From a virus (lineage: Duplodnaviria > Caudoviricetes), in the IMG/VR virus record IMGVR_UViG_2786546475_000015, positions 1 to 64,000 of that record: a DNA stretch of 64,000 bases, one strand, 5' to 3'. A model generated the notes under the pieces. The model did no database searches. It was not told where the DNA came from and saw nothing but the letters and a program-made list of their open reading frames with translations. Positions 8,043 to 24,628 of this stretch are shown here, in pieces (position 1 is the stretch's first letter; the number at the start of each line of letters is the position of its first letter). The position numbers and the translations under genes are program-made.

Positions 8043-9470
8043 ATGCGTATAGAAGTTTTAGAAGCTATTCCCGCCGCTGGAAAGACAAAAGCCTTTCTAA
8101 GGGATGTTAGAGACAATCCGAACGGTTGTGTAGTCGCTTCTATCAGTAGAAAATTAAGTAAGGATAGTCTTAATTATTATGAATCTATTGGTGGAAGTGA
8201 TATGGTCATTATCGATGGTGACCATTGTTCTAATGGTAGTGTTACTCAATCCATCAAACAAAATATAGATAAAAGAGTTATTTTCATCACGCATAAAGCG
8301 TTATTAGAGGTTGATTTGTCTATGTTTGAGGGTAGAGATTTATACATCGATGAAGTACCCGATTTAGTGAACATGGAAAATTATCGCTTTAAAGAGCATT
8401 TCCATGTTATCGAAAAATATTGTGATGTTGAAATGACTTCTGAAAATATGGGTTCGGTGAAACTAAAGCGAGGTTGTAAGTCTAAAATTAGTTCGATGAT
8501 TAATAGTGGTCTTAAAGAAGATGACTGTATTAGTCGTTCTATATATCCGATATTCCAAAGTCTATTACAAGAACTACCCGTTAAAATTAAAAAAGATGAT
8601 GACGGTATAGTCTTGTTTTTTGTTCGTGATAGTACGATGAACAATTGGGATAAATTAAACACTGTTACTATTGCATGTGCTAATTTTGAAGAAACGTTTA
8701 CGGGTAAAATATTAAAACATTGGTGTAAGTGGGAAGTTGCTAGGAGCGATCTAAACGATGTGTTAGATTTCTATGAATATCCTAATAGCGAACGAGTAAC
8801 TATTCATGTGTTGTGTGATAAAAAATGGTCTAGAACCGTAGCGGATAAGAAATATAAATCTCATACGGTCTACGAGGAAGCCGTTAGACGCGTTCAAAAC
8901 CATATAGGTAATGAATCATACCTGTATACAACAAATAAGTCCAGAGGAAAGCTTACAGGGCGCGAGATACAATATAACCCACATGGTTTAAACCGATATA
9001 TGAACGAAACCAATATTGTAGCTCTATTTTCTTATAACCCTATGCCGTGGCAAGTTCCGATTCTTAATAAGTTGTCTGAAATGTGTGATATGCCAAAAGA
9101 TACATTAGCAAAAGCGTTTACTATTTCTAAGTTCATTGAACCTGTATTCCAATTGTGTACACGTGGTAATATCCGAATCGCTCATAGTAAGAAACCGATT
9201 AATCTATATGTACCCGATTTAAGAACGGCTAAATACTTAATAGAAAGGTATATACCAAAAGGAAAGATTGATACTTCACTAATGATTGAAGTTGAACGAG
9301 ACAAAAAACCTAAAAAGCGTAAACCAAAAAGTATACCCGCATTATTGGGTATGAATAAAAAGCAACGCGCTAATTGGTATTACCACGTTCGTACTAAGGG
9401 GTACGGTAATAGTATAGATGATCCAAAAGATATAGCAAATGCTAGGAAGTGGTTAAATGAGCAAAAATAA
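8043..9470 (+). CDS. P-loop helicase-like NTPase with basic C-terminal tail
   Basis: Walker A AIPAAGKT, FITH, Walker B YIDEVP, QLCTRGNIR motif VI-like. Confidence 0.7.
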   Translation: MRIEVLEAIPAAGKTKAFLRDVRDNPNGCVVASISRKLSKDSLNYYESIGGSDMVIIDGDHCSNGSVTQSIKQNIDKRVIFITHKALLEVDLSMFEGRDLYIDEVPDLVNMENYRFKEHFHVIEKYCDVEMTSENMGSVKLKRGCKSKISSMINSGLKEDDCISRSIYPIFQSLLQELPVKIKKDDDGIVLFFVRDSTMNNWDKLNTVTIACANFEETFTGKILKHWCKWEVARSDLNDVLDFYEYPNSERVTIHVLCDKKWSRTVADKKYKSHTVYEEAVRRVQNHIGNESYLYTTNKSRGKLTGREIQYNPHGLNRYMNETNIVALFSYNPMPWQVPILNKLSEMCDMPKDTLAKAFTISKFIEPVFQLCTRGNIRIAHSKKPINLYVPDLRTAKYLIERYIPKGKIDTSLMIEVERDKKPKKRKPKSIPALLGMNKKQRANWYYHVRTKGYGNSIDDPKDIANARKWLNEQK

Positions 9471-9966
9471 TTATGTAGATAAAAAAGAATTACACGATGC
9501 TATTGTAGAATGGCTAGAACAAAGAAAAGAAGATGAAAACGCTCAAATGAGTGAGTTTATTGGTGACGCGATTATAAAGATCGCTACTGGATTTTGTAAA
9601 CAGTACAACTATGCTGGTTATACTTGGAACGACGAAATGATTGGTGATGCTATCGTCAATACAGTACGTTATTTACACAATTATAACCCAAGTAAGTATG
9701 ATAATCCACACGCTTACATTTCTATGTGTTGTGAGTCAGCCGCTAAAGGTCGTCTTAACAAAGAAGAAGCTAATCTAGCCGTTCGTTATAAATATTTCGT
9801 TGATAATTTTGATATTCATGATGAAAATTTTGATGCTGAAATGTCAGACGATTTTATGAACGATATTCAAGATAAAATTGGTAAACACGAAAAGAAGCGT
9901 CAAGCTAGAAAAGAAAAACGTAGAAAGAAACAAATGAATAAAAATGGTAACGGGTTAGATATATGA
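9457..9966 (+). CDS. 55: late transcription sigma factor gp55
   Basis: NYVDKKEL, YAGYTWNDEMIGDA, YDNPHAYI. Confidence 0.95.
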   Translation: MSKNNYVDKKELHDAIVEWLEQRKEDENAQMSEFIGDAIIKIATGFCKQYNYAGYTWNDEMIGDAIVNTVRYLHNYNPSKYDNPHAYISMCCESAAKGRLNKEEANLAVRYKYFVDNFDIHDENFDAEMSDDFMNDIQDKIGKHEKKRQARKEKRRKKQMNKNGNGLDI

Positions 9967-10676
9967 AATCGTTAATACAATTTATTATTGAAGCGGGTGG
10001 TGCGGAAGCTGGTAAATTAGAAATAGCCAATACTTCTTTAAATACAGCCGTAACTTATGCTAGTAGATTGTTTGATGATAATGGTATGGATCTATATGAT
10101 GAAATACCAGATTTCGATTTCAATTACGAACTAGCTCAAAGAAAATCGACAATGGGTTGGACGCGCCGAAAAGATATGCCTGTCATTAGCTCTAGTGATT
10201 TAAAACAATTTCAAAAACGATTGGCTAATGGCGAATTGGATGTTGTTTTAAACCCACGTGCTAACAGTACTAACCCTAAAAATCCGTTCCCACAAGGTTT
10301 GAGTGGTTCAGAAGCTAGGGATTGGCTTAACGCTGGTATGCACGATGGTTATATACCCGATGATAAAGTTGATGTTAAAATGACTAAGGTTAGGGTCAAA
10401 AATTTAAACCCTATACAAAAACAGATTTATTTTGACAAATCGATAAAAGGTATTTCAAAGAATGGTGCTGATAAATCTAGAAATTTTTACACCGATACGG
10501 TATTAATAGCTAGTGCTGATAATTATATTATCGATGGTCACCACCGATTTTTGGGTTCTATATTACTTGATCCAGAAATGAAAGTAAATGTGTTATCTAT
10601 CGATTTACCTATCAAGAAATTATTACCTTTATCGTTGGCATATAGTGACGCGATAGGAAACAAAAGAAACAAATGA
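9963..10676 (+). CDS. ParB/Srx-like domain protein with CTS-like N-terminus
   Basis: LNPIQKQI and YIIDGHHR motifs; MKSLIQFIIE start. Confidence 0.7.
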   Translation: MKSLIQFIIEAGGAEAGKLEIANTSLNTAVTYASRLFDDNGMDLYDEIPDFDFNYELAQRKSTMGWTRRKDMPVISSSDLKQFQKRLANGELDVVLNPRANSTNPKNPFPQGLSGSEARDWLNAGMHDGYIPDDKVDVKMTKVRVKNLNPIQKQIYFDKSIKGISKNGADKSRNFYTDTVLIASADNYIIDGHHRFLGSILLDPEMKVNVLSIDLPIKKLLPLSLAYSDAIGNKRNK

Positions 10677-12499
10677 AGGCATTATCATTATTCACTGGTG
10701 TAGGTGGTATAGATTTAGCCCTAGAGTCAGAAGGGATCGATGTAGTACAAATGTGCGAGGTTGATCCTTTTTGTGTATCTATACTAAACAAAAGATTTCC
10801 TAATATACCAGTACACGACGACATACGAACATTAGATGGTAGTCAATTTAAAGGTGTTGACATTGTTGTGGGTGGTTTCCCTTGTTTTACCAAGGACGCT
10901 ATGATATCAACCGAAAATGGGTTAAAGAAAATAGATTCATTGAATGTTGGTGAGCGCGTTTTAACTCATACAAATGTATATAAACCTATTAAATCTAGAA
11001 TGGTTACTAAAAATAAACCAGTACATGAAATTAATATACAAGGATTACCAAAAATTTTTGGTACAGAGGAACATCCTTTTTATGTAAGGGAAAAGATAGG
11101 TAAGGTATTTAAAGAACCTATTTGGCTACCTGTTAATGAATTAAAGAAAAATGTACATTATTGTGGTATACCAATAAACCAGTTATCAGAAAACCCTTAT
11201 AAATTAACCGAAGAAGAATGTTATATATTGGGTAGGTATTTGGCTGATGGTCATACTATAAAAAGGTATAGAACGAACGAAAATAGACCTAAAGATAGAT
11301 ATTGGGGTGTCGTTCTTTCTATCGGTGACGCTAAATTAACTGACTTTAAAAGCAAAATATCGTCAAATTATACGTTACATAAACATACAAAATCTGTACA
11401 TAGGGCTATATTCAGTTCAAAAAGACTGGTAAAAATCGCAGAACAGCATTGCGGTATTGGTTCTGGTAATAAATTTATATCTGATATGATATTGAGTTTA
11501 CCTAAACCCCTTCTTGAAAGTTTCTATAATGGTTACGTTTCTGGTGATGGTTATTCTGATGGTAGAACTATGACTATATCTACCGTCAGTAAAAATCTTG
11601 CTATAACGTTTTCATTAATGGTAGCAAAGTTATATGAAATACCGTGTTCTTATAGATATGTAAAAACGGATGACACTAAGGTTATCGAAGGTAGAATAGT
11701 CAATCAGAAAGATTATCATAGAGTTCAATTTGTGTTAAATCCTAAAAGAAAATTGGGGTATTCGGATGGTAATCATTTATGGGTTAAGTTTAGGGATATG
11801 AATTTTTACCGATACGAAACTGTTTATAATATCGAAGTTGATGATGATAATTCTTATGTAGTAAATGGTGTAGTTGTACACAACTGTCAACCATTTTCTA
11901 CGGCGGGGAAACAAAAAGGCGAAGAAGATGAAAGGTATTTGTGGAATGAAATGTGTAGAATCATTAGACAGTCTAGACCGAATTGGGTTATTGGAGAAAA
12001 CGTTAAAGGATTACTTCAAACAGGAATTGAAACAGTCGAATCCGATCTTAGAAATGAAGGCTACGAAGTTAGGACATACGTATTATCGGCTAAAGACGTT
12101 GGAGCATACCACGGACGCGAGCGAGTGTTCATCATTGGATGTAAAAAAGAACGACTATCTACCGACACCGCAATTGATGGATTACATAGGTGCGAGGTCG
12201 GAGATAGGGTTACACAAGCTGATGAACGGACAACGGAAAGGTCGAACGAAAATAAATGCTTTAAAAGATGTAGCCGCGTACGGTCTGTACTACCATTCAG
12301 AGATTACAAAAAAGGATGGAGAACTGAACCCAACATTCGTAGAATATCTGATGGGTCTACCCGAAAATTGGACAAATCCAGAATAAAAGCATTGGGTAAT
12401 GCAGTAGTACCACAACAAATCCTACCATTCATACGCGCTATCGTTGCAGTAGAAAACTACGATGGTGACGTATCCGACATAAATCCGCTAGGTATATAG
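10673..12499 (+). CDS. C5 cytosine DNA methyltransferase (alpha subunit), intein-containing
   Basis: Motif I LFTGVGG, IV GGFP|CQPFS, VI ENV, VIII RERV, X LGNAV. Confidence 0.93.
   Translation: MKALSLFTGVGGIDLALESEGIDVVQMCEVDPFCVSILNKRFPNIPVHDDIRTLDGSQFKGVDIVVGGFPCFTKDAMISTENGLKKIDSLNVGERVLTHTNVYKPIKSRMVTKNKPVHEINIQGLPKIFGTEEHPFYVREKIGKVFKEPIWLPVNELKKNVHYCGIPINQLSENPYKLTEEECYILGRYLADGHTIKRYRTNENRPKDRYWGVVLSIGDAKLTDFKSKISSNYTLHKHTKSVHRAIFSSKRLVKIAEQHCGIGSGNKFISDMILSLPKPLLESFYNGYVSGDGYSDGRTMTISTVSKNLAITFSLMVAKLYEIPCSYRYVKTDDTKVIEGRIVNQKDYHRVQFVLNPKRKLGYSDGNHLWVKFRDMNFYRYETVYNIEVDDDNSYVVNGVVVHNCQPFSTAGKQKGEEDERYLWNEMCRIIRQSRPNWVIGENVKGLLQTGIETVESDLRNEGYEVRTYVLSAKDVGAYHGRERVFIIGCKKERLSTDTAIDGLHRCEVGDRVTQADERTTERSNENKCFKRCSRVRSVLPFRDYKKGWRTEPNIRRISDGSTRKLDKSRIKALGNAVVPQQILPFIRAIVAVENYDGDVSDINPLGI
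10883..11884 (+). mobile_element. 334 aa intein with LAGLIDADG endonuclease
   Basis: Starts CFTKDA, block B TEEHPF, YILGRYLADG and FYNGYVSGDG, ends VYNIEV...VVHN before Cys. Confidence 0.95.
11928..12386 (+). CDS. nested +1-frame beta subunit of the C5-MTase (motif IX carrier)
   Basis: LPTP and LNPTFVEYLMGLPENWT motifs; arrangement of M.EcoHK31I; start codon uncertain. Confidence 0.75.
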   Translation: MKGICGMKCVESLDSLDRIGLLEKTLKDYFKQELKQSNPILEMKATKLGHTYYRLKTLEHTTDASECSSLDVKKNDYLPTPQLMDYIGARSEIGLHKLMNGQRKGRTKINALKDVAAYGLYYHSEITKKDGELNPTFVEYLMGLPENWTNPE

Positions 12500-12555
12500 T
12501 TTTGTAGCCCCGTTTGTATGATATAATTTTATAAATTGTCCAAATGGGGTTTAAC

Positions 12556-12780
12556 ATGAAAAAAGTAGTATTAGATAAACAATCATTATTAGAACAATCA
12601 GAGTATGATACAGCGGTAGCCGCTCACTTAGTTCGTTTACAGTTATTAGAATGCGATATTCCAGTAGATGTACCATTTCCTAAAATCGAAAAAACTGTAA
12701 TAAATGTTCTTAGGGGTAGTTTATCGTGTTATTATGACCAAAATTTAATCACATTCGAATGGTATGATGATAATGAATGA
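12556..12780 (+). CDS. hypothetical protein
   Basis: ggggt RBS before ATG 12556. Confidence 0.6.
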   Translation: MKKVVLDKQSLLEQSEYDTAVAAHLVRLQLLECDIPVDVPFPKIEKTVINVLRGSLSCYYDQNLITFEWYDDNE

Positions 12781-12914
12781 TATTTATGACAAAATTTTTT
12801 ATTGTTGGCGTAAAGGTTATAGAACGTCAAAAATAAAAGAATATGTTAAGGATAGATCTTTGTCTGATAAAGATATATCCGATTTGTTTAAATGTGTAAC
12901 TGAAAGGTATTGGA

Positions 12915-13574
12915 ATGGAAAACGAGATTCAAAAGAAGTTTAAAGAGAATAGATCAGAAGATGTAATTTGGGATAAACCATCTAATGACGAGAGTACTAA
13001 AATTTTTATTCTCAACGCGCCGCCACGTGCTGGTAAAGATTCTTTAGCTGAATATCTGCATAAAGAATTAGGTGCTAGTAAATTTTCTTTTAAAGATAAA
13101 CTGTTTGCTATTGCGTTTGTGACTGGTAATTTTACGCGTGATGAATGGCTTAATGTATGGATTCCGCGTTATAATACGGATGCTAAAGATAAACCTTGGG
13201 ATCGTATTGGTGGTATTAGTCAGCGCGATTATTTAATTAAGATTTCAGAAGAATGGATCAAGCCACATTACGGTAATGATTATTTTGGTAATTGCCTAGT
13301 CAATAATATTAATAACCAACGTTGTGATATCGCCGTTGTGTCTGATGGCGGTTTTGTTGATGAAATCGAACCATTATTTAATAAGTACGGCAAAGAAAAT
13401 GTGTATATCGTCCAATGGTCTAAGAAAGGTTGTAGTTTTGAAAACGATAGCCGTGACTATATCGATGATTATCCAGATAATATTATCAAAGTTGGTGAAA
13501 ATGTTCAAGACCACTTCGATGTATTCGCTGAAAAAGCTAAGAATAAACTATCTATGTACGCGAACTACGGTTAA
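12915..13574 (+). CDS. deoxynucleoside monophosphate kinase-like P-loop protein
   Basis: LNAPPRAGKD, SFKDKL, VVSDGGF..E. Confidence 0.78.
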   Translation: MENEIQKKFKENRSEDVIWDKPSNDESTKIFILNAPPRAGKDSLAEYLHKELGASKFSFKDKLFAIAFVTGNFTRDEWLNVWIPRYNTDAKDKPWDRIGGISQRDYLIKISEEWIKPHYGNDYFGNCLVNNINNQRCDIAVVSDGGFVDEIEPLFNKYGKENVYIVQWSKKGCSFENDSRDYIDDYPDNIIKVGENVQDHFDVFAEKAKNKLSMYANYG

Positions 13575-13576
13575 TT

Positions 13577-13786
13577 ATGAATATTAATGATAAAAGAGAA
13601 GTAAGACGTTTGTGTAAGCTGATGAAAAAAGCTATACAAAACGAAAACCGAGAACAATACACCTATGCTATCGCTAAGTCAAAATATCTATGTGGCGATA
13701 CAAATAGTATTATTCTCGACGATTCTTGTTATGATCGTGCTATGGAACGTTTGAATAACACAAAAAGTAGGACAGGTGTTAAGTGA
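13577..13786 (+). CDS. small hypothetical protein at the T4 a-gt.x position
   Basis: Immediately upstream of gene 47. Confidence 0.55.
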   Translation: MNINDKREVRRLCKLMKKAIQNENREQYTYAIAKSKYLCGDTNSIILDDSCYDRAMERLNNTKSRTGVK

Positions 13787-14829
13787 GTAAAACAATATTA
13801 TTAGGTGATATGCATGTTGGGGCTACAAAGGATAGCCCCTATGTGTATAAAATTATCGAACATGGTTTAAAGCAAGTCGTTGAATATGCTAAAAAGCATA
13901 ATATTAGAAGATTGATTCAAGCGGGTGATTGGTTTGATACGCGTAAAGCGGTATCACAAGTCGCTATGGAATTTAATCGTTATGTCGTCATGCCAATGTT
14001 AGAAAGTCAGTTTACCGAAATTATCGTATTAGTCGGTAACCACGACATGCATTATCGACAAAAAATTAGCCCGAATAGCGTTGAAGAATTGTTAGGCGAT
14101 TACGATAGTGTTACCGTAGTAGATACGCCGATGACATTAGACATGGGTAAATTTCAATTTGATTTATTTCCTTGGATGTGTGACGAAAACCGTGAACAAA
14201 TTATGGAGTTTATCAAAAACTCTAATTCTGATTTTAGTTTAGGTCATTGGGAATTGGACGGTTACGAATTCTATCGTGGTATTCGTAGTAGTGGCGACGA
14301 TCCTCAATTTCTACGTAAATATGATTTAGCTTATAGTGGTCATTATCATACTATAAACGGTGATAGTACGGTTCAGTATTTAGGTACGCCGTACACGTTG
14401 ACTATGGGTGATGCCAATGATCCGCGTGGATTCTTTGTATTTGATGATGAAACGGGTACACACGAAATTGTTTATAATACCGAAACATGGCATTACAAGC
14501 TTTATTTTGACGCTAATACATGGGATAAGAACCCTAAAGATTATGCTGGTAAGCGTGTTCATTTAGTGGTTGAAAATCTGGTTGATGATAACGGTAAGAA
14601 AACTAATATCGACAAGATATTCGATAAGTTCGAAAGTGTTTGTGAAACATTCGGCTATACATATGATCAAGAAATTCAAGAAGCCAAGGAAGATGAAGAA
14701 GTTGACGTAAAAGCGAGATCGTTTAATGAAATCGTAGATAATCGCGTTGATATTATGGAAGAACCCGACGAAGTTAAGAAACGTGTTAAGTCGATCATGC
14801 TTGGTTTACGTACAGAGGTTCAACAGTGA
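13783..14829 (+). CDS. 47: recombination endonuclease gp47 (Mre11/SbcD-like)
   Basis: GDMH, GDWFD, GNHD, SGHYH phosphoesterase motifs; synteny. Confidence 0.96.
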   Translation: MSKTILLGDMHVGATKDSPYVYKIIEHGLKQVVEYAKKHNIRRLIQAGDWFDTRKAVSQVAMEFNRYVVMPMLESQFTEIIVLVGNHDMHYRQKISPNSVEELLGDYDSVTVVDTPMTLDMGKFQFDLFPWMCDENREQIMEFIKNSNSDFSLGHWELDGYEFYRGIRSSGDDPQFLRKYDLAYSGHYHTINGDSTVQYLGTPYTLTMGDANDPRGFFVFDDETGTHEIVYNTETWHYKLYFDANTWDKNPKDYAGKRVHLVVENLVDDNGKKTNIDKIFDKFESVCETFGYTYDQEIQEAKEDEEVDVKARSFNEIVDNRVDIMEEPDEVKKRVKSIMLGLRTEVQQ

Positions 14830-15557
14830 GTTATGTTAACTTAATGCAAGGCGATTGTCTTGAAAGAATGAAAGAAATACCAGACGGCAGTGTTGATATG
14901 GTGTTGACCGATCCACCTTATGGAACAACCGCCTGTAAGTGGGATACTGTTATTGATTTAGATAAGATGTGGATGCAATTGAAACGGGTTATTAAACCTA
15001 ATGGGGCTATTGTAATGACTGCTAGCCAGCCGTTTACGAGTGCGCTAATAATGAGTAACCCTAAAACGTTTAAGTATTGTTGGGTGTGGGAGAAAGAAAG
15101 ACCTAGTAATCCCATGCTTGCTAAAAAACAACCACTAAAGTATCACGAAGATATTATAGTTTTTTATGATAAATTACCATTGTATAATCCCATAATGACT
15201 AAGGGCGATAAAAATCACGGTAGTACGTCTGGTAGTCACTTTAACCAAATCACACAAACAAATAGTAAATATTGTCCGAACATTTCGGATATGAAATATC
15301 CTAAGAGTATTCAAAGGTTTAACAGTGAGAGGGGTAGTACTGAACACCCAACCCAAAAACCAGTAGCACTAATGGAATACCTAATTAAGACCTACACCTA
15401 TCTCGGCGAAACGGTACTTGACTTTACTATGGGTAGTGGTACTACTGGTGTTGCCTGTAAAAACCTTAACCGTAATTTTATCGGCATTGAATTAGACCAA
15501 GAATATTTTGATATCGCTAAAAAACGTATCGAATCAGTGAATAATTTGGGGATATAA
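14826..15557 (+). CDS. beta-class N4-C/N6-A DNA methyltransferase
   Basis: TDPPY, HPTQKP, VLDFTMGSGTTG, FIGIEL. Confidence 0.95.
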   Translation: MSYVNLMQGDCLERMKEIPDGSVDMVLTDPPYGTTACKWDTVIDLDKMWMQLKRVIKPNGAIVMTASQPFTSALIMSNPKTFKYCWVWEKERPSNPMLAKKQPLKYHEDIIVFYDKLPLYNPIMTKGDKNHGSTSGSHFNQITQTNSKYCPNISDMKYPKSIQRFNSERGSTEHPTQKPVALMEYLIKTYTYLGETVLDFTMGSGTTGVACKNLNRNFIGIELDQEYFDIAKKRIESVNNLGI

Positions 15558-17248
15558 TGAAATTAACGTTTAAAAATATAGAATTCAAAAACTTTTTAAG
15601 TACTGGTAACGACTCTATCAATATCAATCTTTGCGAACATGATAAAACGCTTATTACGGGTTCAAACGGTGCTGGTAAATCGCAGTTATTGGATGCTATT
15701 TACTTTGCATTGTTCGGTAAACCATTCCGTAAACTGAAATCTAAGAATCAGTTAATTAATGGTACGAACAAGAAAAAGCTTGAAGTCGAATTAGAATTGT
15801 CTAAGGGTAACATTGATTACAAAATTATTCGTGGTATGAAGCCGAATAAATTAGAGTTCTACAAAGACGGTGAAAAGGTTGATGAAGCCGCTAGCGTAAA
15901 AGATTTCCAATCGATTATCGAAGATACCATAGGATTAAACGAAACCACATTTAAACAGGTTATCGTAGTGGGTACGGCTGGTTACACACCATTTATGGAG
16001 TTGACTACACCACAAAAACGTGCTTTTATCGAAGAACTATTGGATGTGTCCGTATATGGTCAGATGAATGATATCAATAAACAAGCTGTTAAAGATATCA
16101 AAAACCGAATGACTAGTATTGAGTCGGAAATTGAATCGCTTAAACGTGAAGCATTAGCTCATAAAGATCATATCGATAGCTATAAAAAACTTAATGATGA
16201 AAATCAACGTAAGCTGAAAGCTATGTATGATGAATACGTTAAAACAGCTAAAGAAAGTAAAGTTAAGTTATCGAAATTAAAAGAACAGTACGAATCGTTA
16301 CAAGAACAGTATGATAGTTCTTTTTCTCAACAATTGTCTAAAGTCAATAATGACATTCGTTCGATTCGTCAGAAAATGAATTCGATTAAGTCGGATTTAG
16401 AGTTCTTTACAGATAGTGGTGAGTGTCCTACATGTACACAAACTATTGCGCCAGAGTTGATTGAATCTGTTAAAAATGATAGTGAAAAAGAGATCAGCGA
16501 ATATAATAATGAATTGAAAAAACTTGATTCATCGCAATCTGAACTTGAAGAAATTGTAGATAAACAAAACAAGTTATCCGAACAGATTAAAGATATTCGT
16601 CGTGATATGGCTTCATTGAAAAATGAAATCGAGCAATCAGTATCCAAAGCTAAGAAAGTTAAATCTAATATGGAAGTCGAGGATAAGACAGACGACTATC
16701 GCGATAAACTCAACGCTGTTAAAGAAAAGATAATCGAAGCTAAAGAATCTAAAGGTGAATTGTTTGAAGAACAATACGCACGTTCTTTAGTCGCTGAATT
16801 ATTGAAAGATAGTGGTATTAAAGCTGATGTTCTTAATGAGTATATGCCACTAATCAATAAGAAATTGAATCAATACATTAAACGTACAGGCTGGAATTGT
16901 TTAATCACGTTAGATAGTCAGTTTAATGAAACGGTTCAAACAGTCGGTAAACAGAATTTCGCGTACGGTTCATTCAGTCAAGGTGAGAAAGCGCGTATTG
17001 ATGTTAGCTTATTGTTTACATGGCGTGATATCGCTCAAACCGTTAGTGGTGTCGAAATTAATCTATTAGTTTTAGATGAAGTATTCGATTCAGCCGCAGA
17101 CAGTCAAGGTATCGAAGCTATTCAAGGTATACTTAACGATATCAATGGTAATATCTTTGTTATTAGCCACAGAGAAAGCCATGATACCGAAATGTTCGAT
17201 AACCATATCCATATGGTCAAGCAAGGTAGATTTAGTCATAGAGGTTAA
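15557..17248 (+). CDS. 46: recombination ATPase gp46 (Rad50/SbcC-like)
   Basis: GSNGAGKS, zinc hook CPTC, FSQGE, LDEVFD, ISH. Confidence 0.96.
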   Translation: MKLTFKNIEFKNFLSTGNDSININLCEHDKTLITGSNGAGKSQLLDAIYFALFGKPFRKLKSKNQLINGTNKKKLEVELELSKGNIDYKIIRGMKPNKLEFYKDGEKVDEAASVKDFQSIIEDTIGLNETTFKQVIVVGTAGYTPFMELTTPQKRAFIEELLDVSVYGQMNDINKQAVKDIKNRMTSIESEIESLKREALAHKDHIDSYKKLNDENQRKLKAMYDEYVKTAKESKVKLSKLKEQYESLQEQYDSSFSQQLSKVNNDIRSIRQKMNSIKSDLEFFTDSGECPTCTQTIAPELIESVKNDSEKEISEYNNELKKLDSSQSELEEIVDKQNKLSEQIKDIRRDMASLKNEIEQSVSKAKKVKSNMEVEDKTDDYRDKLNAVKEKIIEAKESKGELFEEQYARSLVAELLKDSGIKADVLNEYMPLINKKLNQYIKRTGWNCLITLDSQFNETVQTVGKQNFAYGSFSQGEKARIDVSLLFTWRDIAQTVSGVEINLLVLDEVFDSAADSQGIEAIQGILNDINGNIFVISHRESHDTEMFDNHIHMVKQGRFSHRG

Positions 17249-17596
17249 TCATGCACGTTATATGGGAAGATTATTACGAAACAGAACCAGAAAGGAGAGA
17301 TATCTACATCATAGAATCTCATGATGGTTGTTATAGGCGTCAAATGTCTAAAAAGGAAATTAAACAAGCGTTTACGCCTTCTGAGTTCAGTTCTGTTTTA
17401 GATGGTACACACCCTGTATGGGTAGGATATAAACGTGATTGACCGAATATTTTTATCTTTGTCGTTCTATCCACTGTTTTTAGTATATTACTTAATTCAG
17501 TGTGGTAGAATGATAAAGAATAAACAAATAAAGCACGATTGTTATAAGGTTATACAACGTGCTAGAAATTATGGTATTTATGTATAAAGGTGAAAT

Positions 17597-18253
17597 ATGA
17601 AAATTAGTAATGATACACTTGTAATCCTTAAAAACTTCTCTAAAATTCAACCGTGTATTTTATTGAAAGAGGGTTCTCGAATCAACACCATGAGTTTAGA
17701 TAAAAATCAATACGCTCATGCTACGATTCCAGATAAATTTGATCAAAACATGGGTATTTATGATTTGAAAGAATTTTTGGCTACGTTATCTTTGATTGAT
17801 GAACCAGAGATTGAAGTAGAATCAGATGGTCATGAAATCAAAATCAGCGACGGTCGTAGTACGTGTTTTTATGAATTATCAGACGAACGTATTATTTCAA
17901 CACCAAACCGATTTGTTGATTTAGAAGATGATGCTTTCGATGTTCATTTCGATTTGAAGTTTGCTGATTTGGCTAAGGTTATGAAAGCCGCCGAAAATAT
18001 GAAACTTAAATGGATTAGTGTTTTGGGTGAAAACGGTAAACTATTCTTAAAAGCGTTTGATAAAAATAACGAACGTAACAATGAATTTTTGGTAGAGATT
18101 GGTACTTTCGATGGTGATGACTTTCAAGCTATTATGAATATCAGTTACCTAGATGTTATTAATTTAGATTATCGTGTTAGTGTTAAAAAGGATAGTAAAA
18201 TTCGTTTAGAAAATCCAGCGGTTACTTATATTGTCGCGCTAGAGGTAGAATAA
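17597..18253 (+). CDS. 45: sliding clamp gp45
   Basis: MKISNDTLVILKNFSKI, GIYDLKEFL, YIVALE. Confidence 0.95.
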   Translation: MKISNDTLVILKNFSKIQPCILLKEGSRINTMSLDKNQYAHATIPDKFDQNMGIYDLKEFLATLSLIDEPEIEVESDGHEIKISDGRSTCFYELSDERIISTPNRFVDLEDDAFDVHFDLKFADLAKVMKAAENMKLKWISVLGENGKLFLKAFDKNNERNNEFLVEIGTFDGDDFQAIMNISYLDVINLDYRVSVKKDSKIRLENPAVTYIVALEVE

Positions 18254-19215
18254 TGCTTAGTGTAGATAAAAAATATGATATTTGGGAACAGAAGTATCGC
18301 CCACAGTCTATCGATGAAACTATTTTAACTAAAGAGTATAAAAAGAAATTCAAGGACATTCAAAATGGTGTCCTTGGTAACTTACTTTTGGTGTCAGAAA
18401 ATAGTGGTACTGGTAAGACTACGGTGGCGCGTATTTTGGCTCAAGATTATGACATGCTATTTTACAACACGTCAGATGTGAATATTAATACATTACGTAC
18501 TGATATTCGTCGTTTCGCGTCTACTAAATCTATTGATAGTGATGGTAAACGTGGTAAAGTGGTTATTTTTGACGAGTTCGATCGTGCTGGTAAGGATTTA
18601 CAAAAGTCTTTACGTTCATTTATCGAAGAAGTTAGTGGAAACTGTAAGTTCATTTTAACCGCTAACTACCCTAGTAACTTAATCAAAGCGATCCGCGATT
18701 CACGTTTTACCAGAATTGATTTCGTAACACCAGAAAAGCACAAAAAAGAACTTATGATGCAGATGATCAAACGTTCTTTAGCTATTTTGAAAAACGAGAA
18801 TATTTCTGTTGATGGTGATGTTAAGAAAAAGGTAGCTACCTTAGTTAAAAACAGTTTTCCAGACTTTAGACGTGTAGTACGAGAATTACAACATCATTCT
18901 ATGGGTGGTGAGTTATCAGATTCTATTCTTAACCAACGAGAAGAATCGGACTCACAATACGACGAGTTGTTTGAAGCTTTAAAAAGTAAAATGTTTAAAG
19001 ATATTCGTTCGTTCGTTCCTAAAGTAAGTGATAATTATGATAAATTCATCAATAGATTTTTTAAGGAATGTTTAGAACGTGTTGATGGTAGAACGTTGCC
19101 TAATGTTATCTTAGAAATTTATGACAATAACAAAACGGTTACGAATGCCGCGAATATAGACATTCACATCACTGGATTGTTAGTGTTTGTTATGATGGAA
19201 GCCAAATTTAAATAG
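18253..19215 (+). CDS. 44: clamp loader subunit gp44
   Basis: WEQKYRP, GTGKTT, DEFD, FPDFR. Confidence 0.96.
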   Translation: MLSVDKKYDIWEQKYRPQSIDETILTKEYKKKFKDIQNGVLGNLLLVSENSGTGKTTVARILAQDYDMLFYNTSDVNINTLRTDIRRFASTKSIDSDGKRGKVVIFDEFDRAGKDLQKSLRSFIEEVSGNCKFILTANYPSNLIKAIRDSRFTRIDFVTPEKHKKELMMQMIKRSLAILKNENISVDGDVKKKVATLVKNSFPDFRRVVRELQHHSMGGELSDSILNQREESDSQYDELFEALKSKMFKDIRSFVPKVSDNYDKFINRFFKECLERVDGRTLPNVILEIYDNNKTVTNAANIDIHITGLLVFVMMEAKFK

Positions 19216-19222
19216 AGGTATC

Positions 19223-19801
19223 ATGTTAGATATTCTAAATGATAGTGAGTCAATCAAAACACATGGTTGGCTCACTAATGATAAAGACGCTATCAAAGAA
19301 CATAGTAAACAGTTTACGGATAAAGACGAACAAGATAGTTCATTACTATTTAACGCTATCGAAAAAATTGGCTACACCAAAGAGGATATAGAGTTTACCG
19401 AAGATACTGGATGGTATAACTCATTTTTTATTAATAACGCATTTTCGCAACATATCGATACCGCGTTATATGCTTTTGAAATGAATATCCGACCAGATAT
19501 GCCTAATGAGTGGCATTACCATTATCTTAAAAACTCGATTAAGGCGTATAAACGTAGGGGTAAGTGGGCTAAGTTAGAGGATGACGTAGAAAAGATCTTA
19601 TTGACGTATGTTTTCGCTAAAAGCCAAGATATCAATCGGGATAAGGCTAAAGAATACATCGATACTATGCCTAAACAGTTCATAGACGACTTTAAACGTA
19701 GAAATAAGGCTATCGCATTAACCGATGCAGATATGGTCTTAAAACGATTCCCAAAGAAAGAGATTAACAAAGCTAAGAAGGCTGTTAAAGATAACTGGTA
19801 A
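19223..19801 (+). CDS. 62: clamp loader subunit gp62
   Basis: YNSFFINNAFSQHID, KRRGKWAK; synteny. Confidence 0.92.
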   Translation: MLDILNDSESIKTHGWLTNDKDAIKEHSKQFTDKDEQDSSLLFNAIEKIGYTKEDIEFTEDTGWYNSFFINNAFSQHIDTALYAFEMNIRPDMPNEWHYHYLKNSIKAYKRRGKWAKLEDDVEKILLTYVFAKSQDINRDKAKEYIDTMPKQFIDDFKRRNKAIALTDADMVLKRFPKKEINKAKKAVKDNW

Positions 19802-19833
19802 TAAATAAGGGTGTAGTTAACATGGGATAAATT

Positions 19834-20202
19834 ATGATTAAAATAAAATTAGAAAAAGATTTCAATGTTGTAGCTGAAACCCTAACCAGAATCGGTATTG
19901 CTAATAACAGAACACGAAAGTTATATCAAAGTTGCCATATTTTACATAAGCGTGGCGAATATTATATCGTTCATTTCAAAGAAATGTTAAAACTTGATGG
20001 TCGTCGGGTGAATATTTCAGAAGAAGATATTTTCAGACGCGATGATATCGCTAACTTACTACATGAGTGGGGATTGATTAACATAATCGATTCGGTAGCT
20101 GATGTATGTAGTGACCGACCGCGAAATTGCTTTCGTGTAATTGGTTTTAGAGATAAACAAAATTGGAAATTGATACAAAATTATCAAATCGGATCTAAAT
20201 AG
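19834..20202 (+). CDS. regA: translational repressor RegA
   Basis: ETLTRIGIA, LYQSCHILHKRG.YYIVHFKE. Confidence 0.97.
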   Translation: MIKIKLEKDFNVVAETLTRIGIANNRTRKLYQSCHILHKRGEYYIVHFKEMLKLDGRRVNISEEDIFRRDDIANLLHEWGLINIIDSVADVCSDRPRNCFRVIGFRDKQNWKLIQNYQIGSK

Positions 20203-20263
20203 CCTTGCAACACGCAAGGCTTTTTGCTATCATGGGTTTGTTGATTGATAACTAGGAGATAGC
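20201..20263 (+). promoter_or_regulatory. PeSL-like cassette, copy 2
   Basis: agccttgc-aacac-gcaaggct-tttt, TG-c-TATCAT, gggtttgttga, aggag. Confidence 0.85.
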
Positions 20264-20839
20264 ATGACTGAACAAGAAGTAATCGATTTCGCAGAAGAAC
20301 GTATTGAATATTGGTTTGATCGTTTTGGTATCAATCGAAAGCCTTATAAAATTTGTGTTGGTGATACTAACATAGCGCGTGGTCGGTTCAAATCCAATGG
20401 ATATGCATACGGTATATGTGATGATAATATTGGATTAATTGTTATCGATTATAGACATGTAGAAACGGGTACAGAAGAAATGATTAAAGATACTGTACTA
20501 CATGAAATAGCCCATGCCATTGATAAACAATATAACGGTTATAGTAGTGGTCATGGTCGTAATTGGAAACGTATCGCCTGTATTGTTGGTGCTACACCAA
20601 AGGCTAAATCAAAAGACACTAAAGAAGGTTTGTTAAAACGTATTAGTAATGCTAAGTACGCTATCATAGATAAGCGAAATCCCACAAAACCGATAAGTTA
20701 TTGTCAACGTCGATTAAAAAATCTACACAATCGATACTACCCGAATGATCCTTCTGGTAAGGGTAATCTTTACTTAGTAGAAAGTGGTTATTTTATGACA
20801 GGCGATGTAGATGTTATTTTGAAGAAAATGTTTCGATAA
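20264..20839 (+). CDS. SprT-like zinc metalloprotease
   Basis: TVLHEIAHA...GHGRNWK. Confidence 0.85.
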   Translation: MTEQEVIDFAEERIEYWFDRFGINRKPYKICVGDTNIARGRFKSNGYAYGICDDNIGLIVIDYRHVETGTEEMIKDTVLHEIAHAIDKQYNGYSSGHGRNWKRIACIVGATPKAKSKDTKEGLLKRISNAKYAIIDKRNPTKPISYCQRRLKNLHNRYYPNDPSGKGNLYLVESGYFMTGDVDVILKKMFR

Positions 20840-20867
20840 AGTTCTTAAAAATTAATCGTATGTTATT

Positions 20868-20900
20868 ATGTGGGTGTCACTAAATTAGTGGCGCTCACAT
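20868..20900 (+). promoter_or_regulatory. hairpin upstream of gene 43 (translational operator and/or terminator)
   Basis: atgtgggtgtcacta/tagtggcgctcacat with several G-U pairs, ~10 nt before the gaggt RBS. Confidence 0.6.
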
Positions 20901-20922
20901 TTTTATATATGAGGTAATTAAA

Positions 20923-23493
20923 TTGTTTTATACAGACATTGAAATTAGTAAGGGTAAGGTCGTAGAACGATACATCGATAAAGATGGTGGCGATCACGCT
21001 CGACGCGTTAATTTCGAACCCACATTCTATTATCCGCATGACAAAGGCGAGTATAAAGATATATTCGGTAATAGAGTTAAAGAAAAGGTATTCGATAACA
21101 TTTCACAAAGCCGAAAATGGCGTAAAGAAATGTCAGATGTTGATATTTCGGTTCTTGGAATGGACGATTACAAACTTCAATACATCGCTAATACATACGA
21201 AGATGAAATTGAATTTAATATCAATTATATCCGTATAGCTATTTTCGATATCGAGGTTAAATCAAGTGATGGATTCCCTAAACCAGAAGAAGCCGCCCAT
21301 CCGATAGATAGTATCACACATTATGATAGTATAGAAGATAAATATTTCGTTTATGCTTTGTATGATTGGGATGAATACTTATCCCGCGAACGTATGGATA
21401 TCACCGAAGATGTGATCGATAAAGTTGTATTTCATAAACTTGGTTCTGAACTTGAGTTGTTACAAAAATACAAAACAGACTGGTGTAGCCGTTACCCACA
21501 CGTATTAACTGGTTGGAACAGCGAAACGTTCGATATTCCATATATCATTAATCGCTATGACGTATTGTTGGGTGAAGGAACGGCTAAGTTTTTAAGTCCG
21601 TGGAAAAAAATTACATCAAAAGATACCAGAGATAAATTTGGTAATCCTATTCGTGTTTATAAAATTGGCGGCGTGTCGTGTATCGATTATCTAGCCGCTT
21701 ATAAAAAATTCGTATTAGAGCCTAGAAAGAGTTACAAACTTGATCACATCGCAGAAGTAGAATTAGGTGATAATAAGGTTGAATACGAAGGTAAATTACA
21801 TGAGTTATCAGAAACAGATCCACAAAAATACGTAGATTACAACATTAAAGACGTTAGTATTATCGTTGGTTTGGATAATAAACGTAAACTATTCCAATTG
21901 ATCTTTGAGTTGGCTTATTACGCACGTTGTAGTTTCGAAGATACATTGGGTACTATCAAAATTTGGGATGCTATCATCTATAATTCTTTACGTAGAGAGA
22001 ATATCGCTATCCCACCTATTAAAAAGCATGATAAAGCTCATTTTGAGGGTGCATTTGTAAAAGAACCTGTTGTTGGTATCTATGATTGGGTTATGAGTTT
22101 TGACTTAACATCACTATATCCTCATATCATGATGCAGTGGAATATCAGCTTAGAAACATTTGTTCGTAGAGAAGATGAACAGAGTATTTTAGCGTTTGCT
22201 AATAAATCGGCTGAAATTGATTATCCAGAATACGCTTATAATCCTAGTGGTAGCCTGTATAGAAAAGATATCAAAGGCGTTATCCCACGTGAAGTAGAAA
22301 AGGTATTCATCCATCGTAAAGAGCATAAAAACAAAGAATTTGAAGCTAACAAAAAAGCTGAACAATGTAAATTAGATGGTGATATGAAAGGATACGAGCA
22401 TTGGAAAAATATCGAATCCGCTGAACATATCGCTCAATGGTCACGTAAAATTTTGATCAACGGTTTGTATGGCGCTACTGGTAATAAGTATTTCCGTTAC
22501 TATCGTGTGGAAAACGCGGCATCTACTACGGCTGGTGCTCAACTAGCTATTCGCTGGATTGAACGTAAATTGAATGAATATATGAATCGTGTTGTAGGTA
22601 CAACCAATAAAAACTACGTAATCTACATCGATACAGATAGTGTGTATATTCAGATGAAACCTTTATTAGAAAAAATGTTGGCTAAGAAAGGTAAGAAAAT
22701 TGGCGATTTAGAAAAAATTAAGATCGTAGATTTTCTAGATAATGTAGGTAAAAAGAAAATCGAACCGTACATCAAAAAATCATACCAAGAAATGGCTGAT
22801 TATACCAATTCGTATGAGCAAAAAATGTTCATGGATAGAGAAGCTATTGCAAGTCGTGGGTTTTGGACAGCTAAAAAACGTTATGCTCTTATGGTGTGGG
22901 ATAACGAAGGTAAGCGTAAATTTGATGAAAACGGTAATGTTATTCCGTCTAAGAAAGTTATCGGTTTAGAGACTAGAAAGGCGGGTACACCAAACGCGGT
23001 TATTCCAGCGTTAGAAAAATCATATGACATTCTTTTGACTTCTGATGACAACCAAGATTTGGTAGATCATTACGAATCATTCAAGAAAGAGTATATGAAA
23101 AAAGATGTATCAGAAATGGTACAAGTGAGTGGCGTTAATAACATTAAGAAATATAGTCGTAACGGATTCCCGATAAAGGGTACACCGCATAATGTTAAAG
23201 CCGCCCTATTCTTTAATAGGTTAGCCGAGGAACATGGTATACCACCTATCAAAGATGGTGAGAAAATTTGTATGCTTAATATCAAGTATCCAAATCCATA
23301 TAATGAAAAGAAAATCGCTTGGGTTAGTGGCGATAAACTACCAGAGGAATTCAATTTAGACTTGAGTATGTTGGTTGATAAAAAAGCCATGTTTGATAAC
23401 ACGTTCACAAGTCCTATCGAGAATATCTGTAAGGTAACTAATTGGTCTTATGAGAAACAATCGCCCACATTAGGTGATACATTGGGGATTTAG
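20923..23493 (+). CDS. 43: family B DNA polymerase gp43 (TTG start)
   Basis: FDIEV exo I, SFDLTSLYP, KILINGLYG, YIDTDS. Confidence 0.98.
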   Translation: MFYTDIEISKGKVVERYIDKDGGDHARRVNFEPTFYYPHDKGEYKDIFGNRVKEKVFDNISQSRKWRKEMSDVDISVLGMDDYKLQYIANTYEDEIEFNINYIRIAIFDIEVKSSDGFPKPEEAAHPIDSITHYDSIEDKYFVYALYDWDEYLSRERMDITEDVIDKVVFHKLGSELELLQKYKTDWCSRYPHVLTGWNSETFDIPYIINRYDVLLGEGTAKFLSPWKKITSKDTRDKFGNPIRVYKIGGVSCIDYLAAYKKFVLEPRKSYKLDHIAEVELGDNKVEYEGKLHELSETDPQKYVDYNIKDVSIIVGLDNKRKLFQLIFELAYYARCSFEDTLGTIKIWDAIIYNSLRRENIAIPPIKKHDKAHFEGAFVKEPVVGIYDWVMSFDLTSLYPHIMMQWNISLETFVRREDEQSILAFANKSAEIDYPEYAYNPSGSLYRKDIKGVIPREVEKVFIHRKEHKNKEFEANKKAEQCKLDGDMKGYEHWKNIESAEHIAQWSRKILINGLYGATGNKYFRYYRVENAASTTAGAQLAIRWIERKLNEYMNRVVGTTNKNYVIYIDTDSVYIQMKPLLEKMLAKKGKKIGDLEKIKIVDFLDNVGKKKIEPYIKKSYQEMADYTNSYEQKMFMDREAIASRGFWTAKKRYALMVWDNEGKRKFDENGNVIPSKKVIGLETRKAGTPNAVIPALEKSYDILLTSDDNQDLVDHYESFKKEYMKKDVSEMVQVSGVNNIKKYSRNGFPIKGTPHNVKAALFFNRLAEEHGIPPIKDGEKICMLNIKYPNPYNEKKIAWVSGDKLPEEFNLDLSMLVDKKAMFDNTFTSPIENICKVTNWSYEKQSPTLGDTLGI

Positions 23494-23548
23494 TATAATT
23501 CCCTATTTTTTGGTATATAATCGTAGTACTCAACTAAGAGGTTATTAA

Positions 23549-24628
23549 ATGAGTGCATTAGAAAAACTATTAAATTCTAGTAAAAACGAACACGCCGCTA
23601 TTCTATCAGAATCGGAATTCTTTGAAAAGCGTAGTCCTGTAAGAACTAAAGCGGCAACGCTAAATATCGCTTTAAGTGGCGATATGGCTGGTGGTCTTAC
23701 AAGCGGTTTAACCGTATTGGCTGGACCATCTAAGCATTTTAAATCAAACATCGGTCTAACCGCTATCAGTGCTTATATGAAAAAATATAAAGAAGCTGTA
23801 TGTATCTTCTATGATTCGGAAGGTGGTGTGACTAAAGCATACCTTAATTCTATGGGTGTTGATCCATCACGTATCATGCATGTTCCGATTAAAAACATCG
23901 AACAGTTGAAATTTGAAATGATGAATCAGTTAGAAGCGTTAGAACGTGGTGATGATGTTATCATTTTCGTTGATAGTATTGGTAACTTGGCTTCAAAGAA
24001 AGAAGCGGAAGATGCTAAAGACAATAAATCAGCGGCAGACATGACACGTGCTAAAGAAATTAAGTCTTTATTCCGTGTTATTACACCATATTTCCAACAT
24101 TTAGACATTCCCGGAATTATGATCGCTCATACGTACGATACAATGGAAATGTTTTCTAAGAAAGTAGTAGGCGGTGGTCAAGGTGTTATGTTAAGTGCTG
24201 ATACCGTGTTGATTATCGGTCGTCAACAAGATAAAGATCAAAAGACTAAAGAGATTAAAGGTTGGGATTTCATTCTAAACATCGAAAAATCTAGGTTTGT
24301 TAAAGAGAAAATGAAAGTTCCTTTAGTCGTTAAGTATGATAAAGGTATTGATATATTTGGCGGTCTTTTGGATATAGCAACCGATTTAGGATTTGTTGAG
24401 CGTCCTACTACACAATCATACAATCGAGTTTTCATCGATGAAGAAACTGGCGAACGTACGGTAGAAGAACGCAAGTGGAAAAAGAAAGAAATCAACGGTA
24501 AAGAATTTTGGTCGGATCTAGTTAAACATAAACCGTTTAGGGATGCGATTAAAGCACATTACCAGTTAGGTGAAGAAGCTGTTGATGAACAAGATAAAGA
24601 TGATATTGACGATATTATAGGTGAATAA
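23549..24628 (+). CDS. uvsX: RecA-like recombinase UvsX
   Basis: LAGPSKHFKS, YDSE, DSIGNLASKKE. Confidence 0.97.
   Translation: MSALEKLLNSSKNEHAAILSESEFFEKRSPVRTKAATLNIALSGDMAGGLTSGLTVLAGPSKHFKSNIGLTAISAYMKKYKEAVCIFYDSEGGVTKAYLNSMGVDPSRIMHVPIKNIEQLKFEMMNQLEALERGDDVIIFVDSIGNLASKKEAEDAKDNKSAADMTRAKEIKSLFRVITPYFQHLDIPGIMIAHTYDTMEMFSKKVVGGGQGVMLSADTVLIIGRQQDKDQKTKEIKGWDFILNIEKSRFVKEKMKVPLVVKYDKGIDIFGGLLDIATDLGFVERPTTQSYNRVFIDEETGERTVEERKWKKKEINGKEFWSDLVKHKPFRDAIKAHYQLGEEAVDEQDKDDIDDIIGE

Follow-up and report, generated by a model that had tools for sequence, protein, structure and literature searches.

Six of the 299 genes called in a 166-kb T4-like phage genome end in the same peptide, [N/D]-x-L-[G/D]-I-COOH. 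The proteins that carry it are the DNA polymerase gp43, the late sigma factor gp55, a C5 methyltransferase, an N6_N4 methyltransferase, a Mom-like DNA modifier and a DUF4326 protein, and all six work on DNA or on clamp-dependent transcription. From sequence comparisons, we consider it likely that this tail is a lineage-specific sliding-clamp-binding motif, which would tether DNA-modifying enzymes to gp45.

Results

The sequence is the Caudoviricetes record IMGVR_UViG_2786546475_000015, and the window analysed here is its positions 1–64,000. Four of the tailed genes lie inside the window; those for the Mom-like and DUF4326 proteins sit beyond it (Table 1). An initial annotation had described the four as ORFs with a common ending, and their positions, endings and family assignments were all upheld. 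It had also reported no further ORF of this kind in the window, and we found none among the plus-strand ORFs of at least 50 aa. The tail set is larger than the four proteins first noted, as a listing of C-termini across the whole genome added the Mom-like and DUF4326 proteins. The same listing had been expected to bring in gp33, which has only a conservative variant of L-G-I and thus a different peptide.

Table 1. Tailed genes and related features. Coordinates are window positions unless marked as genome positions.
Feature	Position	Strand	Family evidence	C-terminus or remark
gp55 late sigma factor	9457-9966	+	PHROG 234, E 8e-46	N-G-L-D-I at 9949-9963
C5 cytosine DNA methyltransferase, intein-interrupted	10673-12499	+	PF00145, E 3e-40	N-P-L-G-I at 12482-12496
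Intein	10883-11884	+	Hint_2 29.4 bits (cut-off 28.4); Intein_splicing E 2e-7	LAGLIDADG-type motifs
Beta-class N6_N4 DNA methyltransferase	14826-15557	+	PF01555, E 2e-33	N-N-L-G-I at 15540-15554
gp45 sliding clamp	17597-18253	+	PHROG 223, E 2e-61	Proposed docking partner
gp44 and gp62 clamp loader	18253-19215 and 19223-19801	+	PHROG 168 and PHROG 225	
gp43 DNA polymerase (DNA_pol_B)	20923-23493	+	PHROG 262, E 1e-280	D-T-L-G-I
Dam-like D12-class methyltransferase	31539-32351	+	28% identity to Matisse Dam	Tail-less internal control
gp33	genome 80500-80784		PF16805	L-F-G-V
DUF4326 protein, T4 NrdA.1 orthologue	genome 97277-97546		PF14216	N-V-L-G-I
Mom-family protein	genome 102486-103157		PF25680	N-P-L-D-I

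In every case the tail forms the final five residues, and the Pfam domains stop upstream of it. L-[GD]-I endings were found in 6 of the 299 called genes compared with 0.21 expected (binomial P ~1e-7, for a motif chosen post hoc with the data already seen). The exact C-terminal tripeptide L-G-I occurs four times in the genome; in an unbiased recurrence test, a C-terminal tripeptide multiplicity of at least four was reached in 24 of 5000 random internal tripeptide draws (P ~0.005), and in 100 of 5000 column shuffles. Across the proteome, [ND]-x-L-[GD]-I occurs ten times, six of them at the extreme C-terminus.

A common ending could also be a by-product of DNA-level signals, such as overlapping ribosome-binding sites, late promoters or terminators, or could arise by chance. 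Some of the genes invite this explanation. Three of the six stop codons overlap the next start codon, and G-rich tail codons stand where the next ribosome-binding site would be expected; the stop of the DUF4326 gene overlaps the late-promoter word T-A-T-A-A-A-T-A; and the last gp43 codons and stop lie within a weak terminator-like hairpin. However, no one DNA signal is common to the six genes, and we rejected each of these causes as a general explanation. Within the tails, Leu is encoded in three ways and Gly in two, all three stop codons are used, and three genes have no coupled downstream start. Thus, the constraint is on the peptide, and selection acts at the protein level. Chance is excluded by the recurrence test, with a P far lower for the five-residue pattern, and the extension is altogether missing from the nearest homologues. 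We regard this explanation as very improbable and already largely refuted.

The C5 methyltransferase scored 139 bits against PF00145 (cut-off 22) and contains motif I (F-x-G-x-G), the P-C-Q of motif IV and motif X (G-N-A-V). Its intein splits the protein between G-G-F-P and C-Q-P-F-S, so that motif IV is whole only once the intein is removed; the catalytic Cys is therefore the +1 residue. The protein continues for 30 residues past motif X, compared with 17–24 residues in homologues, and the L-G-I ending was found in none of 120 homologues among the matches listed. The N6_N4 methyltransferase scored 116 bits against PF01555 (cut-off 26.7) and was placed in this class by that score together with a D-P-P-Y, at residue 29, preceding the AdoMet-binding F-x-G-x-G region. 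The D-P-P-Y motif suggests that its target is probably N6-adenine. In its structural model (pLDDT 89), the last helix ends near residue 241, and low confidence (45) is confined to the final three residues. Most homologues end 2–5 residues past this helix, and the tail is absent from all 119 of the nearest (63–80% identity). The nearest tail-less homologues belong to non-T4-like phages, in T7-like and siphovirus-like contexts; the enzyme was therefore acquired and the tail gained afterwards. These results bear out the earlier claims that the tail lies past the catalytic domain in both methyltransferases, as a C-terminal extension, and that both gained it relative to their homologues.

Both methyltransferase genes overlap neighbours in the replication and recombination cluster. 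The C5 gene does so in the gp55 cluster, and the N6_N4 gene overlaps gp47 on one side and gp46 on the other, which suggests co-expression with these neighbours. A check of the Dam-like product confirmed that it ends without the tail. The DNA ligase likewise has none, and these two absences count against the clamp-tether reading.

The Mom-like protein matches PF25680 over its full length (132 bits, cut-off 27.1, residues 6–207) and by family membership is a predicted adenine modifier. Nearly all of 119 Mom homologues terminate in, or a few residues from, a conserved Y-P-K. The phage protein extends 13 residues beyond it, and residues 211–223 were modelled as disordered (pLDDT <50). Among about 120 nearest Mom homologues the tail is absent, with one exception described below. 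The DUF4326 protein matches PF14216 (93 bits, cut-off 25, residues 5–80 of 89) and shares 41% identity with T4 NrdA.1. For DUF4326, the predicted substrates are ADP-ribose-linked phosphates rather than bases (PMC9503650).

The final eight residues of gp43, T-L-G-D-T-L-G-I (23467–23490), were compared with gp43 of T4, RB49-like phages, Slopekvirus, S13 and CC2. They fit [ST]-L-x-D-x-[LF]-[GD]-I, the pattern of RB49-like gp43, with matches at Leu2, Asp4 and Ile8, and align position by position with the RB49-like and T4 polymerase tails (T4: S-L-D-F-L-F-G). In gp55, the tail follows a basic, Asn/Gly-rich linker. The phage gp45 matches the clamps of RB69 (1b77/1b8h, E 5e-28) and T4 (1czd, E 9e-27). 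In T4, clamp contact by gp33 is essential, and the variant ending of this client counts against the clamp reading. Clamp binding by the RB49-like and T4 polymerase tails is established, and the clamp pocket has been defined crystallographically (PMC2988020; PMC6212786, which describes the pocket). The C-terminal clamp-binding motifs of T4 gp43, gp55 and gp33 are nearly alike and interchangeable (PMC2988020).

Close relatives of this gp43 were not found: megablast against GenBank phages gave no match, and the best tblastn identity was 44% (≤44% in IMG/VR and JGI metagenomes). A search with the Mom protein recovered a single syntenic relative, Logan contig L045, with 35–84% amino acid identity. 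Its Mom protein is the exception mentioned above; it retains the extension and ends in N-D-L-D-I, with four linker residues changed. As this is the one close relative found, the tail's conservation is judged from a single comparison.

Other T4-like phages have parallel endings of their own. RB49-like phages carry an MTS-type methyltransferase that ends in L-F-D-I, like their gp43, and a homologous N6_N4 methyltransferase that ends in N-T-L-D-L, where gp33 ends in N-T-L-D-I. The Slopekvirus Matisse has an extended Dam with the ending T-L-D-D-L-M and a DUF4326 protein with the ending S-L-D-F-L-D-I. In CC2, the DUF4326 protein ends in S-L-D-K-L-F-D-I and gp43 in S-L-D-D-L-F-G. T4 Dam has no polymerase-like tail, and no other ORF within 10 kb of gp43 in the IMG/VR loci carried the local polymerase tail. 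The tail had been predicted to covary with that of gp43 across phages. When client tails were scored by BLOSUM62 against reference tails from six phages, the matrix showed no clear diagonal; fine-scale covariation within each phage is therefore only partly shown. We rejected the V-F-D-like endings of ligases from several phages as clamp motifs, because they seem to belong to the conserved fold and the clamp motif of T4 ligase is an internal loop (PMC6212786). A baseplate protein of phage S13 has an ending that resembles that of S13 gp55, which we took as chance.

Could the tail serve another shared partner, for instance as a protease-read tag for degradation or timing, or as a hook for a different replisome hub? 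The composition of L-G-I is unlike that of L-D-F-L-F. Leu and Ile are retained, and Asp and Gly replace one another, but the tail has none of the aromatic residues of the T4/RB69 motif, and a Gly at position −2 is uncommon. Additionally, clamp binding by L-G-I and L-D-I tails is predicted from sequence. Against this, experiments in T4 have defined C-terminal clamp epitopes on three proteins, gp43 and gp55 among them, and the gp43 tail here is homologous to those epitopes in position. S-L-D-F-L-type tails are also carried in other T4-like phages by orthologous DUF4326 proteins and by methyltransferases. We consider a partner other than the clamp quite improbable.

The initial annotation had also proposed that tailed methylation replaces hydroxymethylcytosine. 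The supporting absence of T4 genes extends to the whole genome, in which no homologue of 42, beta-gt or 56 was found. However, the sole ThyA-family gene is a td orthologue with Asp at the dUMP/dCMP specificity site, where ThyA has Asn, and cytosine may therefore also be modified at the nucleotide level. Whether methylation stands in for hydroxymethylcytosine is thus uncertain.

Discussion

We propose a model in which the T4-family sliding-clamp-binding motif (SCBM) takes, in this lineage, the form [N/D]-x-L-[G/D]-I-COOH. gp43 and gp55 would dock through it in the hydrophobic pocket of gp45, and gp33 would probably dock in the same way through its variant. Four DNA-acting enzymes of unrelated folds would have gained the peptide as a short C-terminal extension and would thus be recruited to clamps on newly replicated phage DNA. 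Modification or processing would then take place close to the fork, before the DNA encounters host nucleases. We infer all three steps: that the tailed enzymes bind gp45, act at the fork and protect against restriction.

The tails may instead bind gp45 for a purpose other than fork-coupled protection, such as enrichment on clamp-rich phage DNA, coupling to late transcription, or regulation of polymerase and sigma access to the clamp by competition. In T4, replication and late transcription both use the clamp, whose three sites are contested by its clients (PMC2988020; PMC6212786). The predicted activity of DUF4326 and the Asp of the td orthologue point the same way. However, three of the four new clients modify bases, and in phages such enzymes usually serve to protect against restriction; in addition, clamps are loaded at primer ends and so are most abundant on newly made DNA. 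We judge such other purposes unlikely.

DNA modification in this phage could be organized as a clamp ‘toolbelt’, in which at least four fold-unrelated enzymes each gained the hook independently and ride gp45 on nascent DNA; we give this about an even chance. The same arrangement may hold more widely: T4-like phages that lack hydroxymethylcytosine may tag acquired modification enzymes with their own clamp motif, and phages that use the host replisome may equip homologous enzymes with a beta-clamp-type Q-x-x-L-F tail. A Q-x-x-L-F motif is present in five N6_N4 or Mom homologues of the tail-less type from other phages, where it is confined to C-terminal extensions.

If the tails do dock on gp45, protective modification would be physically coupled to replication, with no site search by free enzyme, which would explain how a phage whose nucleotide pools are unmodified can outrun host restriction. 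A simple sequence rule for clamp clients would follow, namely the polymerase's own C-terminal peptide. To polymerase, ligase and transcription factors, the client list of T4-type clamps would add methyltransferases, a Mom-type modifier and DUF4326; we found none of these three described as gp45 clients in the literature. This would be the first clamp-coupled Mom-type modification, and a testable prokaryotic-virus counterpart of DNMT1-PCNA coupling. As the tail is short and portable, it offers an easy experimental handle.

Eukaryotic DNMT1 is recruited to replication forks by a PIP box that binds PCNA. In both systems, a short linear motif would hold a methyltransferase on the sliding clamp of the replication machinery, coupling methylation to replication. 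The enzymes are unrelated, though, and the motif of DNMT1 is an internal Q-x-x-[LIM]-x-x-[FY]-[FY] box rather than a C-terminal L-[GD]-I; none of the six phage tails contains a PIP box, as they have no Gln and no aromatic pair. Additionally, DNMT1 maintains an epigenetic mark, whereas the purpose in the phage would be protective. The likeness would thus be a functional analogy, with no membership.

Clients of the bacterial beta-clamp (Pol II, Pol IV, Pol V, Hda and MutS) carry a Q-L-[SD]-L-F type motif. They resemble the proposed phage clients in that a short C-terminal clamp hook has been added to diverse DNA enzymes, but they belong to another clamp family with another motif, which is not present in this phage.

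The T4-family SCBM is compared last. The phage tail differs from it in being L-[GD]-I without aromatic residues and, by our sequence-based reading, in having methyltransferases, a Mom-like modifier and DUF4326 among its clients. It is like the SCBM in being a short peptide at the extreme C-terminus, placed after a variable linker and common to the polymerase and late sigma factor of one phage. Moreover, the gp43 tail is positionally homologous, and the phage encodes a gp45-type clamp together with its loader.

Results

Six proteins of this phage end in the pattern [N/D]-x-L-[G/D]-I-COOH. The initial annotation had described such a tail on gp43, gp55, a C5 methyltransferase (MTase) and an N6_N4 MTase. 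These four C-termini were confirmed, and a list of all plus-strand ORFs of at least 50 aa in the window held no other. The virus record is one piece of 165,977 bp, and its first 64 kb make up the window. When ORFs were listed over the whole genome and their C-termini compared, the count of four stood for the window, but two further proteins, a Mom-family DNA modification protein and a DUF4326 protein, were added. The late-transcription protein gp33, expected to share the tail, has a related ending and not the same peptide. Dam was correctly described as tail-less.

The L-[GD]-I ending occurs in 6 of 299 called genes versus 0.21 expected (binomial P ~1e-7), with genes called greedily and the motif defined post hoc, after the data had been seen. 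As an unbiased statistic we used the highest multiplicity of any exact C-terminal tripeptide. This was 4, for L-G-I; a multiplicity of at least 4 was reached in 24 of 5000 sets of tripeptides drawn at random from protein interiors and, with shuffled columns, in 100 of 5000. The five-residue pattern occurs 10 times in the proteome, six of them at the extreme C-terminus.

The genome is T4-like, has a G+C content of ~34% and carries nearly all early genes on the plus strand. The T4 replication and late-transcription module is present in the flagged stretch, with gene order as in T4. The phage is isolated. Its best gp43 match across GenBank phages, IMG/VR and JGI metagenomes shares 44% identity, and the nearest gp45 representative 40%.

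Positions of the features discussed (genome numbering unless prefixed; L001 and L002 are further stretches of the same genome, L037 is from an RB49-like phage and L069 from Klebsiella phage Matisse)
Feature	Position	Remarks
gp55	9457-9966	tailed
ORF, 237 aa	9963-10676	function unassigned
C5 cytosine MTase	10673-12499	tailed; contains intein
Intein	10883-11884	~334 aa; LAGLIDADG-type motifs
dNMP kinase-like gene	12915-13574	
gp47	13783-14829	
N6_N4 MTase	14826-15557	tailed
gp46	15557-17248	
gp45 (sliding clamp)	17597-18253	
gp44 (clamp loader)	18253-19215	
gp62 (clamp loader)	19223-19801	
regA	19834-20202	
gp43	20923-23493	tailed
Hairpin	23484-23503	7 pairs, then T run
uvsX	23549-24628	
Dam-like D12-class MTase	31539-32351	D-S-P-Y for usual D-P-P-Y
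gp33	80500-80784	PF16805
td (thymidylate synthase) orthologue	82361-83218 (L001:18361-19218)	only ThyA-family gene in genome
DUF4326 protein, 89 aa	97277-97546	PF14216, 93 bits; ends N-V-L-G-I
Late-promoter word T-A-T-A-A-A-T-A	97538-97550 (L002:13538-13550)	T4-type; ahead of next gene
Mom trio	100825-103900 (L002:16825-19900)	directly after dCMP deaminase
Mom-family protein	102486-103157	PF25680, 132 bits; ends N-P-L-D-I
MTS/Eco57I-type MTase	L037:6647-7486	between baseplate genes
Matisse Dam	L069:12683-13534	C-terminal extension; longer than other Dams

It could be argued that the tail is a by-product of overlapping ribosome-binding sites. In gp55, the N6_N4 MTase and Mom the stop codon overlaps the next start, and G-rich codons lie where a ribosome-binding site is expected. 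However, gp43, the C5 MTase and DUF4326 have no coupled neighbour (inspection of gene ends bore this out for the first two, as originally claimed), and the tail codons vary across the six genes, with three codons for Leu, two for Gly and every stop codon in use. We therefore rejected this as the general explanation. Only in DUF4326 does a late-promoter word overlap the stop, together with the last codon, and only gp43 has a weak terminator-like hairpin there, covering its last two codons and stop. Since comparison of codons, ribosome-binding sites, late promoters and terminators revealed no DNA signal common to all six genes, the constraint acts on the peptide and not on the DNA.

As first noted, the tails of both MTases lie beyond the catalytic parts. 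The C5 enzyme has 30 residues past motif X versus 17-24 in its homologues, and the N6_N4 tail follows the last helix. With the C-extein as query, 0 of 120 listed C5 homologues carry the tail. The same is true of the 119 nearest N6_N4 homologues (63-80% identity), most of which terminate 2-5 residues past the last helix; the N6_N4 structure model has a pLDDT of 89 overall and 45 for the last three residues. In nearly all of the 119 nearest Mom homologues the chain ends with a conserved Y-P-K or a few residues from it, whereas Mom of this phage has 13 residues more, the sole disordered part of its AlphaFold model (pLDDT <50 for 211-223). One Mom homologue alone, P0124 (75% identical), retains the extension. 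It belongs to a syntenic relative whose neighbouring proteins are 35-84% identical to those of this phage, and it ends N-D-L-D-I despite four differing linker residues. The tail is an add-on to both MTases and Mom. The Mom-like gene shows translational coupling on both sides, upstream with the gene of a 557-aa protein (PHROG 1745, 'DNA transfer protein') and downstream with that of a NERD/PD-(D/E)XK-like nuclease, and this trio is also present in the relative.

One of the nearest tail-less N6_N4 homologues adjoins a T7-type RNA polymerase and another lies in a siphovirus-like context. From these contexts, the N6_N4 enzyme came from a source other than the T4 family and was tailed later, which agrees with the horizontal acquisition originally suggested. 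A 68% identical homologue on an 887-bp contig, P0015, ends E-S-V-N-P-L-G-D-Y-F-S, in part resembling the tail. In other phages, the N6_N4 homologues P0022, P0027, P0060 and P0113 and the Mom homologue P0139 have a beta-clamp-like Q-x-x-L-F; all five cases are confined to C-terminal extensions and none is internal. Docking of phage modification enzymes on the host clamp is thus hinted at as a parallel theme.

Discussion

The highly similar hydrophobic-acidic C-termini of T4 gp43, gp55 and gp33 are interchangeable clamp-binding epitopes (PMC2988020), and the gp45 pocket is known from crystal structures with RB69 polymerase and T4 ligase peptides (PMC6212786; PMC7892883). We compared the whole genomes of T4, two RB49-like phages, Slopekvirus Matisse, Cronobacter phage S13 and Aeromonas phage CC2.

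C-terminal endings of gp43 and gp33
Phage	gp43	gp33
T4	S-L-D-F-L-F-G	T-L-D-F-L-L
RB49-like	S-L-T-D-L-F-D-I	N-T-L-D-I
Matisse	S-L-N-D-L-F-G-D-W	T-L-D-G-F-M
CC2	S-L-D-D-L-F-G	not found
This phage	T-L-G-D-T-L-G-I	L-F-G-V

The gp43 tail aligns with that of RB49-like gp43 at all positions of [ST]-L-x-D-x-[LF]-[GD]-I, and an L-D-I ending is already in use on RB49-like gp33. For these reasons the tail is best read as a divergent member of a family-wide motif, beside a matching divergent clamp.

Other T4-like phages offer parallel cases. The RB49-like MTS/Eco57I-type MTase has the gp43 ending L-S-D-L-F-D-I. Matisse Dam ends T-L-D-D-L-M, resembling Matisse gp33 and gp55, whereas the Dams of T4, RB49-like phages, S13 and this phage have no clamp-type tail. 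DUF4326, the T4 NrdA.1 family, has clamp-like tails in several lineages (S-L-D-F-L-D-I in Matisse, S-L-D-K-L-F-D-I in CC2), and a Matisse SLOG-like protein ends T-L-D-F-L-W. An N6_N4 homologue in RB49-like 011D4, frameshifted in that isolate, has the gp33-like ending N-T-L-D-L. The N6_N4 family therefore has two different phage-specific tails in two T4-like lineages, and more than 100 closer relatives are tail-less. Client tails had been predicted to covary with that of gp43; concordance at the family level was found, but strict covariation was not, as no clean diagonal emerged when every client tail was scored against every reference tail with BLOSUM.

Based on these sequence comparisons, we propose that the tail probably docks on gp45 and so brings modifying enzymes to new DNA. 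Through docking, the two MTases, DUF4326 and the Mom-type modifier would be concentrated on newly replicated DNA that carries loaded clamps. Clamp binding, action at the fork and protection from restriction are what we infer. Both MTase genes overlap adjacent genes, one in the gp55 cluster and one in the gp46/47 cluster, which suggests that they are co-expressed with replication genes.

The hydroxymethylcytosine and glucosylation genes, noted as missing from their usual positions, are absent genome-wide: tblastn (E 1e-3 or better) found no homologue of T4 gene 42, beta-gt or gene 56. Thus, the T4 pathway is absent. In the G-L-P-F-D of the td orthologue, Asp takes the place of the Asn found in E. 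coli ThyA and in the td of RB49-like phages and Matisse, and the enzyme may act in dCMP-directed chemistry. For this reason, it is uncertain whether enzymatic methylation 'replaces' hypermodification.

In full-text searches, the T4 clamp clients named were the polymerase, ligase, gp33, gp55, the loader and possibly RNase H, and methyltransferases of phages tethered to a clamp came up in no paper. DNMT1-PCNA is a functional analogy, but the phage tails fall outside its PIP-box class. Particular to this phage are the motif's L-G-I / L-D-I form, Mom and DUF4326 as clients, and an intein that interrupts the catalytic motif of the tailed C5 MTase between G-G-F-P and C-Q-P-F-S, so that the motif IV catalytic cysteine is also the intein +1 nucleophile.
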